Of a DNA stretch of 45,337 nt, positions 6,001 to 9,000 are shown in pieces; within the stretch, counting starts at the first letter, position 1, and each line of letters starts with the position of its first letter. Origin of the DNA: a virus (Duplodnaviria; Heunggongvirae; Uroviricota; Caudoviricetes); IMG/VR virus record IMGVR_UViG_2721755660_000004; one strand, 5' to 3'. The position numbers were made by a program.

Positions 6001-9000
6001 GTCACCGTTGAAACTTTTTGTAAGGCCTTGCTCGGCTTTACTGATTGCAACTCTGGTGACCCCTGCTTTTTTAGCCAACGCATCTTGCGTTAACCCAGCT
6101 TTTTGTCGTGCGTTGATGAGGCGTTCACCTAAAGATTTCATTTTTCTTCTCCTTTCATGGCTGCTGATACTAAAGTAACAGAATCTCTTGATACTTTGGA
6201 TTCTCGCGTTTAACATTCTTGGATAACAGAGTATCCGGTGTGAGACTAAAGAATGACCCTTTATGAAATATTAAAAACTCAATTTAAAACCAATGCCGCT
6301 ATTGGCCGCAGGTTCCCAAAGAAAGGAAAGCCTCGTGGCAGTCAAGGTGTTGGAAAGTGGAAAACGAGAGGTGTTCCAGAGGACGTAGCTATTCTCTGCC
6401 ATCTGGATCCAAGTATCCCGTATATCCATCCTGATTTAGCGCACACAGAAGAGGGGCAAGGTAAGCAATCGGAGGTGTGATATGTCACAGTGCTTAGCGA
6501 TGCTTCAGAAACTTAATCAGCGTGTTAAGGCTGGGAAGAATTTCTGCGGGAGTTTTGATAACCGGAACAATCCGCCTGTCTTCATAGAGCTCACTAGCTT
6601 TCAGTGCGTTAAAAAAGTTATCTACGGCTTGTTGGTAACTTCGTGCTTGTCTGCTGCTCAGGTGAGGGCGCAGTCTTCTGAAATCGTCTCTGGATATATG
6701 TGGCATATCCCGTTTTCCGTCTCGGCAACCCTCGCGGAAGGCGTCAAGGATCAGGAACAATTCATCAGCGACGGCATTGAACTCTTTCCGCTTATCTCGA
6801 TTTTTGGCAAGCCAGTGTCCGAGCCAGGCGCCAAGTCCAAAAGCACTAACCGTCCAGATGAAGGTAACAAGGCGCGGGTTGGTATTGAACAGAAGAACAA
6901 ACTCACTCCAGATGATTCCCATAATTTCTGGCGACTCCTTTTTGTTCAGGTAGCGGCATTTCTTGTTGCATTTCCTGTTGGTGCTTATTTCAGCATGCGG
7001 GCAAATCTTCGCAATGACTGGCGTAAGCATATCCAGAAAGGAAGACGCCTGAAAGTACCCGTACTGGCTATGTTCTCCATCACAGGCATCAGCGATCGCA
7101 TTAAACCTCGATCTTGGCAGATATGGGAACGGAAGCATTGGTTTCAGGATATGCGGATATGCCATGGGATCGAGGCTGCTTATAGGGATGCATGGCTCTG
7201 GAAAAAGCGCGTAACTGAGAAGTGCTGAACCGTGATCCCAATAATTTATCCGTAAGGAGGTATCAGTGAACACCGCAATTTTTAACGATAAAGCATCCAT
7301 GACCAGCGTTGAGATCGCAGAGCTGGTGGGTAGTCAGCACTCAGATGTTAAACGTAGTATCGAACGCCTGGTTGCTAAAAACGTCATCCGGAAACCGCCA
7401 ATGGCTGTTTCCGAGAAAATCAATAACTTAGGTTTTAAAGTTCAATATGAGCATTACCTGTTTGAAGGAGAACAAGGTAAGCGCGACAGCATCATTGTCG
7501 TCGCACAGCTCTGCCCTGAATTCACTGCTCGCCTGGTAGATCGCTGGCGCGAACTGGAAGAACAGATCCGTAAGCCAATGAGCGAAATCGAAATGGTTGC
7601 TGCGATGGCTCTTGAAGCCGTTCGTCAGCAAAAACGCCTCGACCAGATGGAAGAGAAAGTCACCCACGTTACTGAAACCGTCGAGCAAATCAAAAGAGGC
7701 ACCATACGCGATGGTTATGCAGGCTATCGTCAGCTGGTGGCGAAAACGGGTATGTCAGATGCGAAATGCCGCAATCCGGTGAACGCATATCAGATCCCTA
7801 CCGACACCCATGAATTTATGACGCCGGATGGATTGTTGTCTCGTCGCGCGATTGTTGCAGTAGAACCCTTCATGTCTGCTTTTCATCGCATGATGAGTGA
7901 AGCAGAACCACGAGGTACTCGCTGGTATCACCCGAAAATGGGGTTGTTCCAGGCGCTGGGCTGGCAGGTGTAATTATGCTCACAGGTAACACATGCAAGT
8001 ACTCAATCGCTGGTTCCGTGATGGAAGGGGGCGTCGCGTCCACGTTATACGCTGGGAGCCTGAAACACAGCGGGTTATTTACCTGCGTGATGGTTATCCG
8101 CATGAATGCTTCAGCCCGCTGTGGTTGTTTCGTCGTGATTTTGTTGAGTGTGAAGCACCAGCATAAGCTTGAACTGCTTGAAAAACCTGGATATATCATT
8201 CTGATATCTAGAGTAATGGAGAATGGTATATGGGAAGAAAAGCAAGGCATCTTGCAAATAAAGAAATCATTAAAGTATTGGCTGAACGCTATCCAGAAAG
8301 CTTCTTTGTTATTCCATACAAAGTGGTTCCGCTTGTTCACGATATCGTTCATGAGCTCTTTGCCGATCTCGGACATATACCTAAGGAATACAAAAACAGC
8401 CTTCGAAGAGCCATCTATCAGTACAAAAGCTCAGATTCATACCTTCAGTCAGTCGCGTTTGGAGAATATCGCCGCAATCTGGCGGGAAATCGTATTGTCA
8501 GAACATCCGTATCTGAACGCGAAGAAGCCAGAGCACAACTCAAAGAACGTGGTATCTGGACTCGTCGTATGGAGCTCTTGTTCAAAGTTAATATGGGTAG
8601 AAAAGAAGCGTCTAATCGCTGAATTTTATCAAAACATTGATTCCTTAATTTCGGAACGTTACACTGTTCAGGCACCTTATAAAACGGGTGCCGGGATTGG
8701 CGTCCTGAAATTCAATATAGAGCATAACCGCGCTCATGCGGTTTTTTCGTGTCATGAGCATTGCTACGCCCAAATTATGGTGGGGCGTGCAGGGGCATCG
8801 CAAGATGCGCCGGGTTCTATGTTGACCGGTTACGCCAACCCTGTACGTCTCACCACCTCTGTGATTGGCGTCCCATGTGGTGAGTTCTTTGAATTCAACA
8901 TAGGGGCTGTCACCATGACTACTCTCCCAACCCTCTCTCAACCTGAAATTGCGATCGTTGATGGTCAGGCTGTTACATCTTCTTTGGCTGTTGCTGACTT

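Follow-up and report, generated by a model that had tools for sequence, protein, structure and literature searches.

The window, as we call the whole stretch of DNA analysed here, comprises 45,337 nucleotides (nt) of a virus of the Caudoviricetes (IMG/VR record IMGVR_UViG_2721755660_000004), and positions given below are those of this stretch unless another locus is named. Its early-right operon carries a gene for a small protein of the FinO/ProQ domain family (the FinO gene), followed on the same strand by two RNAs, of the IsrK and C4 types, and by a Rha-family gene of the anti-repressor type (Table 1). The gene order is that of a lambdoid prophage: repressor, cro-position open reading frame (ORF), Rha/Ant-like gene, DUF4222 gene, FinO gene, Rha gene and replication genes. 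An earlier description made from the DNA letters only (the sequence-only reading) had placed the FinO gene between two Rha-type regulators; both regulators are present, and the DUF4222 gene intervenes as well. Escherichia coli GB089 has a prophage, next to yecN and a DUF72 gene, that matches this region at 100% identity; RefSeq names the product there 'ProQ/FINO family protein' (WP_038813125.1). Since RefSeq already names the gene, its bare identification is not new, and we focus on its relationship to the RNAs that follow it.

Table 1. Positions of the FinO gene, the RNA module and the flanking early genes in the window (aa, amino acids; E, expect value; PDB, Protein Data Bank).
Feature	Position	Strand	Evidence and details
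LexA/CI-like repressor gene	5485-6216	-	lambdoid early region
Rha/Ant-like regulator gene, 235 aa	7266..7973	+	PF09669 E=3.4e-8; PHROG 63 anti-repressor Ant E=2.4e-45
DUF4222 gene, 57 aa	7993..8166	+	PF13973 E=1.7e-15
FinO cassette, ~470-bp indel	8167..8636	+	63-nt leader, Shine-Dalgarno sequence 8218-8221, ORF, 14-nt trailer; alignments A3 and A5 with Stx1_14040
Gene for minimal FinO/ProQ-domain protein	8230..8622	+	130 aa, isoelectric point (pI) 10.1, ATG start; Pfam, PDB phmmer, AlphaFold 2, Foldseek
Putative isrK promoter	8637..8665	+	-35 TTGATT (8637-8642), 17-nt spacer, -10 TACACT (8660-8665); predicted start ~8672; read from sequence
IsrK-type small RNA, leader of immI-like module	8672..8748	+	RF01394 62.8 bits, gathering score 50, E=3e-11, full length 1-77
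IsrK sub-site b1	8697-8703	+	complementarity
IsrK sub-site a1	8712-8723	+	complementarity
IsrK intrinsic terminator	8726-8743 (hairpin), plus U-run	+	terminator scan
C4-type antisense RNA	8773..8860	+	RF01695 80.1 bits, gathering score 45, E=3e-14; long closing stem, two inner hairpins
C4 recognition loop a'	8814-8825	+	complementarity
C4 recognition loop b'	8832-8838	+	ACGCCAA; complementarity
Target site b2	8865-8871	+	UUGGCGU, pairs with b'
Target site a2	8895-8905	+	UCAACAUAGGG, pairs with a'; overlaps Rha Shine-Dalgarno AGGGG (8902-8906)
Rha-family anti-repressor-type gene, 187 aa, putatively module-controlled	8915..9478	+	PF09669 E=4e-27; PHROG 821 E=2e-102

The FinO/ProQ domain proposed by the sequence-only reading is borne out by profile, fold and pocket residues. 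The ProQ/FinO profile PF04352 matches aa 10-107 of the protein (E=2e-13; 50.7 bits, with the gathering score at 27), and 17 of 18 subfamily members match it too. In a phmmer search of the PDB, E. coli ProQ ranks first through its N-terminal FinO domain (5nb9, E=1.7e-5, aa 9-107), followed by Legionella Lpp1663 and RocC. The sequence-only reading had the product align along its length with the ProQ domain; what stands is the segment of aa 9-107, or ~76% of the protein. The C-terminal 23 aa contribute a helix specific to the subfamily (aa 112-128), with a conserved Trp110 just before it. AlphaFold run on the single sequence gave an unusable model, with a predicted local distance difference test (pLDDT) score of 44.6. 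We therefore used a model predicted from an alignment of 18 relatives (A1), with a pLDDT of 93.6 and a predicted template-modelling score of 0.84. In a Foldseek search of the PDB with this predicted structure, all 26 matches at probability 1.0 were FinO-domain structures (RocC, Lpp1663, NMB1681, FinO), and no structure outside the FinO-domain family scored better than E=2.

FinO domains clamp the base of a hairpin together with its 3'-OH tail and bind terminator hairpins that carry such a tail; the crystal structure of RocC with RocR gives the roles of the pocket residues that hold the RNA 3' end (PMC9674577). In the PDB alignment the residues of the 3'-nucleotide pocket are kept: Tyr71 corresponds to RocC Y87 and ProQ Y70, and Arg81 to R97 and R80. 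Arg59 aligns with RocC R75 and ProQ R58, and Lys55 with RocC K71 and ProQ K54. Tyr71 is invariant across the subfamily, most of whose members have a basic residue at position 81 or 82. The profiles for the named family members score far lower than their cut-offs: 41.2 bits against 127 for ProQ proper (NCBIfam equivalog NF003434) and 19.7 bits against 136 for FinO proper (NF010317). The protein, at 130 aa, is also without the Tudor-like C-terminal domain of ProQ. Judged by these scores, it is a member of the FinO/ProQ domain family and an orthologue of neither ProQ nor FinO. Close alleles of the gene differ by 7-12 synonymous and 3 non-synonymous changes, which argues that the FinO frame is under purifying selection. 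A GGAG Shine-Dalgarno sequence precedes the ATG by 8 nt, and a promoter scan found no convincing promoter proper to the gene.

Beyond the FinO stop codon, the sequence-only reading had described about 105 nt of non-coding DNA closed by a hairpin and T-run at 8726-8747, and had taken this for a possible small RNA (sRNA) derived from the 3' untranslated region (3'-UTR) of the gene. The terminator scan recovers the hairpin, ~103 nt from the stop codon, and a terminator-ended RNA does lie there. What was missed is that a C4 antisense RNA follows, that the gap extends to 8914 and that its layout has the logic of immI. The first RNA is IsrK, with a conserved sigma-70-like promoter of its own. Both hexamers of this promoter are invariant in all aligned alleles (A5), including that of a Shiga-toxin (Stx1) phage without the FinO gene; a consensus promoter scan did not call it, as it has 8 of 12 matches at a threshold of 9. 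Because the promoter is present in genomes that have no FinO gene, IsrK is not primarily a 3'-UTR product of that gene.

The second RNA, C4, has a predicted fold much more stable than those of shuffled sequences (z=-5.1, with 0 of 200 shuffles equalling it); for IsrK the excess is modest (z=-2.1). Loop a' of C4 is complementary to site a1 inside IsrK and to site a2, and loop b' to UUGGCGU at both b1 (8697) and b2 (8865). The model for the c4-a1b1 leader (RF03163) matches 8659-8711 at 21.7 bits, below its gathering score of 46.7, and reaches threshold in two related loci (L012 and L006). Three natural alleles of the module, represented by the window and L004, by L002 and L006, and by the FinO-less phage Stx1_14040, have wholly different loops, and both sets of targets co-vary with them (compared over window 8623-8914, L002 5454-5780 and L025 2200-2500). 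The covariation of loops and targets across three alleles, as seen in specificity alleles of the P1/P7 immI type, is direct evidence for a module that acts through these pairings. On sequence grounds, the IsrK/C4/Rha region is a module of the P1-immI or Gifsy-1-isrK type.

In the immI region of phages P1 and P7 (c4-icd-ant), as in the CI system of P4, the C4 RNA is cut from the transcript that it regulates and pairs through two loops with a1/b1 on the upstream side and with a2/b2 at the ribosome-binding site further down. P1 and P7 are heteroimmune through different loop and target alleles, and the window module likewise has allele-specific loop and target sets. We know of no protein cofactor described for C4 or CI. 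The window differs from P1 immI in that the downstream gene is of the Rha type, not Ant1/2, and in that the module resides in a lambdoid prophage whose repressor is CI/LexA-like. The second comparison is with isrK-orf45(STnc1160)-anrP of Gifsy-1, which also combines an IsrK that has its own promoter and terminator (leaky there), a C4-like RNA (processed there) and an anti-repressor-like gene; in Gifsy-1, IsrK turns on the anti-repressor AnrP by activating translation of the read-through mRNA of IsrK itself (PMC4825925). Gifsy-1 has antQ upstream and no phage-encoded FinO-domain protein, and the direct overlap of a2 with the Rha Shine-Dalgarno sequence is a feature of the window. IsrK is among the sRNAs listed as associated with ProQ in Salmonella (PMC5391140).

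The FinO gene enters this module as a discrete cassette. In phage Stx1_14040 the DUF4222 stop codon abuts the isrK promoter, and at this point the window has ~470 extra bases that contain the FinO gene only; homology with FinO-less E. coli genomes restarts at ~8630-8636. C4 modules of two specificity alleles are adjoined by an identical FinO gene, with 0 nt differences. If the protein recognises these RNAs, it is thus unlikely to do so through the loop sequences, and the combination points to recombination between cassette and module.

A word-indexed protein search recovered only the protein's own 90% cluster, and we used an exhaustive phmmer search of 1.84 billion representatives instead, which returned 47 proteins at E<=1e-3. 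About 20 of the 47 are ~122-131 aa long and align end to end with the window protein, and most of them share the Trp that precedes the C-terminal helix. Genomic contexts were fetched for 12 lineages, all of them members of the subfamily with no outgroup included. Ten had enough downstream sequence to be informative; P0004 and P0007, whose contigs stop less than 100 nt past the gene, were left out. In nine of the ten, the same strand carries part of a C4-class module at ~45-550 nt downstream (the window, P0002, P0005, P0008, P0009, P0010, P0012, P0019 and P0049/50). The C4-class RNA itself, either C4 or sRNA-Xcc1, is present in eight of these nine; the contig of P0012 ends past an IsrK-like leader. 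The next gene, identified in seven lineages, belongs to the Rha, Bro-N, AntA, P22_AR_N or Derepression family.

The individual loci show how much varies around this pair. In the window, IsrK and C4 precede Rha. P0002, which is 52% identical to the window protein and lies in a P2-like prophage adjoining cpxRA, has IsrK and C4 before a Derepression-family gene. P0005 has an IsrK-like leader and C4, after which the contig ends, as it does after the IsrK/a1b1 leader of P0012. C4 is followed by Bro-N in P0009 and lies ~550 nt downstream in P0010. RNAs of the sRNA-Xcc1 type precede Bro-N in P0008 and a gene with the P22 anti-repressor N-domain in P0019; P0049/P0050 (from Salmonella and a metagenome, within a tail-gene region) have one or two of them, then Bro-N or AntA. 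The loci of the relatives range from 35 to 66% GC, on lambdoid, P2-like and tail-gene-island backbones, and the linkage holds down to ~30% protein identity. Across the lineages the family of the anti-repressor, the subtype of the RNA and the backbone of the phage vary, and the FinO-like gene and C4-class RNA are kept together in eight. No C4-class match was found elsewhere in the ~180 kb of fetched loci of the relatives. The Xcc1-type loci share the logic of the C4 loci, their leader closing with a hairpin and U-run, and in the two with clean matches (L008 and L018b) a loop of the RNA matches one site in the leader and another beside the start of the downstream gene. Every scanned locus has loop and target sequences of its own.

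A context search in viral contigs for the longer outgroup FinO-family proteins P0017, P0020 and P0022, together with P0007 and P0015, found none. A search for related loci with alignment A2 or with P0010 yielded none in genome contigs and only near-identical copies in viral contigs. Some of the fetched loci have tandem modules 3' of the FinO-like gene: two isrK-C4 units in L006 (5443-6000) and two sRNA-Xcc1-type RNAs in L018 (4459-4757). In the Salmonella-type loci (L007-L010 and L018-L019), a conserved 182-aa gene without a Pfam match lies directly 5' of the FinO-like gene on the same strand (4388-4936 or 3388-3936). This gene, the FinO-like gene, the RNA and the anti-repressor gene form a small island between tail genes.

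We propose, with a probability of roughly 0.6, that the FinO-like protein is a dedicated cofactor of the adjacent IsrK/C4 switch that governs the Rha-family anti-repressor-type gene. The synteny in nine of the ten informative lineages gives strong indirect support to the earlier suggestion that the downstream RNA region holds the protein's cognate partner. The functional coupling is suggested by analogy with FinO/FinP-traJ, FopA/Inc-repZ and RocC/RocR. FinO and FopA, both plasmid proteins, each stabilise an antisense RNA encoded in cis and make it pair faster with the mRNA of a key regulator (PMC9977716, PMC7491321). In FinO/FinP/traJ of F-like plasmids and in FopA/Inc/repZ of pCol1B9, as here, a FinO-domain gene of a mobile element lies beside a structured antisense RNA, and there the RNA controls the life-cycle regulator of the element by loop-loop pairing at the ribosome-binding site (PMC9977716, PMC7491321). 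Recognition of a hairpin with a 3' tail would be a further likeness, to judge from sequence and model, and the fold is shared, FinO itself (1dvo) being matched by the model at Foldseek probability 1.0. The window differs from both plasmid systems in its temperate-phage setting, its C4/IsrK-type RNA pair, its anti-repressor target and the optional status of the protein for the module. The phage protein also has neither the long N-terminal helix of FinO nor the basic N-terminal domain of FopA (PMC7491321), and carries a short C-terminal helix instead.

If the analogy with the plasmid systems holds, the protein would bind an RNA end made of a hairpin and a 3' tail, which could be the IsrK terminator, the processed C4 stem with a short 3' tail, or both. 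The bound RNA would be shielded from 3' decay, and the protein would speed loop-loop pairing of C4 with its sites. The outcome would be sharper on/off control of anti-repressor translation and possibly also of transcripts that read through to the replication genes further down. The effect could be repressive, with C4 stabilised and less anti-repressor made, as in the known plasmid precedents. Alternatively, the protein could stabilise IsrK in a feed-forward role, which is about equally possible because its gene belongs to the early-right operon and would be expressed once CI is inactive.

Past the FinO stop codon (8622), the first terminator found by the scan is that of IsrK, and the FinO mRNA probably ends there too. 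A shared terminator would allow autoregulation, and the protein might do nothing else, binding only the 3' end of its own mRNA with no effect on the C4 switch; protection of mRNA 3' ends is among the activities reported for ProQ (PMC12086684). We think it very unlikely that its role stops there. A protein with no other target would have no evident function, and any RNA with the IsrK terminator would be bound whatever promoter it came from, at which point autoregulation merges into the cofactor role proposed above.

Several observations weigh against a dedicated cofactor. The isrK-C4 part occurs in 1,702 of 5,426 complete E. coli genomes and the FinO gene accompanies it in 13, so the module works without a FinO protein in most phages. 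No relative was found by tblastn (window protein, P0050 and P0010) in 50,697 GenBank phages, nor by tblastn of the window protein in the PLSDB plasmids. P0003 (L015) has no C4-class RNA in the 339 nt downstream, the sole negative of the ten lineages, and in L023 the RNA is ~550 nt away with an opposite-strand ORF call between. Synteny among homologues can in part be inherited rather than selected. Two residues that characterised FinO domains keep are changed in the protein. The nearly invariant beta-turn Gly of the pocket (RocC G52, ProQ G37) is replaced by Asp38; this column holds D, G, N and other residues in the subfamily, and the model keeps the turn before helix 39-47. The N-cap Ser (RocC S70) is replaced by Tyr54, and the modelled N-cap helix begins two residues earlier, past a conserved Pro51. 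Finally, Neisseria ProQ and other minimal FinO proteins bind many RNAs, so that specificity is not to be assumed.

The rarity of the cassette raises the question of whether gene and module are coupled at all. The gene could be a moron-like passenger that borrows the IsrK terminator or early transcription and serves an unrelated role, for example anti-defence by binding host or satellite RNA, with the synteny reflecting shared descent of a mobile block. The cassette is indeed a clean indel, missing from more than 99% of E. coli isrK-C4 modules; P0003 fits the same picture, and in L017 the gene adjoins defence-type genes (GmrSD/AAA_15). We nevertheless consider a passenger unlikely, since the linkage persists to ~30% identity through changes of RNA class (C4 or Xcc1), of loop specificity, of anti-repressor family and of backbone, which would be unexpected if the association were neutral. 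Moreover, the cassette has been gained and lost independently of the module and yet occupies the same position.

The breadth of RNA binding is a separate question. Minimal ProQ proteins such as NMB1681 of Neisseria meningitidis and Lpp1663 of Legionella pneumophila are of similar size (~120-130 aa) and consist of the FinO domain only, and the closest structural matches to our model are RocC (7rgt/7rgu), Lpp1663 (6s10) and NMB1681 (3mw6), with template-modelling scores of 0.57-0.80 normalised to the target. Sequence identity to the minimal ProQs and RocC is only 16-26%. Those proteins are chromosomal, and NMB1681 is a global binder, whereas the present subfamily is borne by phages or mobile elements and syntenic with one RNA module. 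The window protein could still be a promiscuous 'mini-ProQ' of the phage: it would add to the activity of the host's ProQ or Hfq, or compete with it, and so rewire the networks of sRNAs and mRNAs in the host, IsrK and C4 then being at most two ligands among many. Reports on the minimal FinO-domain protein ProQ of N. meningitidis offer a precedent (PMC7272453, PMC11912907), the protein is very basic, and its coexistence in identical form with two C4 specificity alleles suggests that any recognition would be structural, not sequence-specific. We doubt this explanation all the same, because it does not account for a gene placed upstream of a C4-class module in nine of ten informative lineages and across very different phages, and because the plasmid members FinO and FopA have narrow, cis-encoded targets (PMC9977716, PMC7491321). 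The sequence-only reading had offered both redirection of host sRNA networks and control of the lysis-lysogeny decision; as judged from sequence, the second fits the evidence better.

A literature search, with subscription-only papers outside its scope, found no paper linking a FinO/ProQ-family protein with C4, STnc1160 or sRNA-Xcc1 RNAs. What is new is the conserved pairing of a FinO-like gene with C4-class switches; the RNA and domain families were already known. Pairs of a FinO-domain chaperone and a cis antisense RNA are known from plasmid transfer and copy-number control (FinO/FinP, FopA/Inc), and C4/CI-type RNAs have so far been treated as protein-independent phage immunity devices. By analogy, the present locus suggests that the plasmid design of chaperone plus antisense RNA is here attached to phage immI-type immunity. 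If so, this design would extend to control of lysis and lysogeny in temperate phages. A bolder version, which we advance tentatively, is that minimal FinO-domain proteins of a clade confined to phages have evolved together with C4/IsrK-type switches (like P1 immI or P4 CI) and would provide the first dedicated protein cofactor of a long-known RNA-only immunity. In phages that carry the gene, the anti-repressor switch would then not depend on host ProQ, or would compete with it; the protein might, for instance, be made early and commit the phage by stabilising IsrK or C4 after failure of the main repressor. The finding would complement the reported association of host ProQ with IsrK in Salmonella. 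The locus also offers a compact natural system of three parts (a 15-kDa protein, a 77-nt RNA and an 88-nt RNA), with natural specificity alleles, in which to study the choice of RNAs by FinO domains. Shiga-toxin phages belong to this prophage family, and control of the anti-repressor is therefore relevant to prophage induction.

The locus further brings to light protein annotations that overlie known RNAs, among them 'ash family' proteins and over-long Rha or Ant proteins. Modules of this type have a small upstream ORF (icd or orf45) with translation coupled to that of the anti-repressor; in the window, the candidates are short ORFs (e.g. 8761-8883) and an in-frame open extension of Rha, which span the C4 region. 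A 288-aa Rha of RefSeq, extended upstream to 8615 over both RNAs, and a 500-aa ORF (7976-9478) were rejected as proteins across the RNA region because the profile match and the bias towards synonymous substitutions both belong to the FinO frame. The +1 frame of the FinO gene is free of stops for 525 codons (7901-9478), through DUF4222, the FinO gene, IsrK and C4 into Rha. Over the FinO gene this frame stays open in 5.9% of synonymous-codon shuffles; it is also open in L012, L011 and L027 and closed in six other relatives. From these comparisons, the long open frame is probably due to chance. Protein calls overlie IsrK and C4 at window 8615-9478, L002 5446-6114, L023 4947-5249 and L025 2020-3042. 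The record of the Stx1 phage carries a 340-aa 'Ant' over the RNAs, RefSeq elsewhere has an 'ash family protein', and the ORF over the C4 RNA in L023 has a weak match (E=0.0014) to the Pfam family Phage_ASH. Some of these calls, at least, may simply translate an RNA gene.

Three other features of the window lie outside the module. Between the cro-position ORF and the first Rha-type gene, two ORFs on opposite strands overlap almost fully (6482-7228, plus strand, 248 aa; 6494-7300, minus strand, 268 aa); neither has a Pfam match, and the plus-strand one is hypothetical in RefSeq. At ~15281-17869, RefSeq annotates an inserted IS66-family element (tnpA, tnpB, tnpC) in the identical region of GB089. 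Further downstream, at 18634-18809, the window matches the sRNA STnc100 (Rfam RF02076, 93.7 bits).

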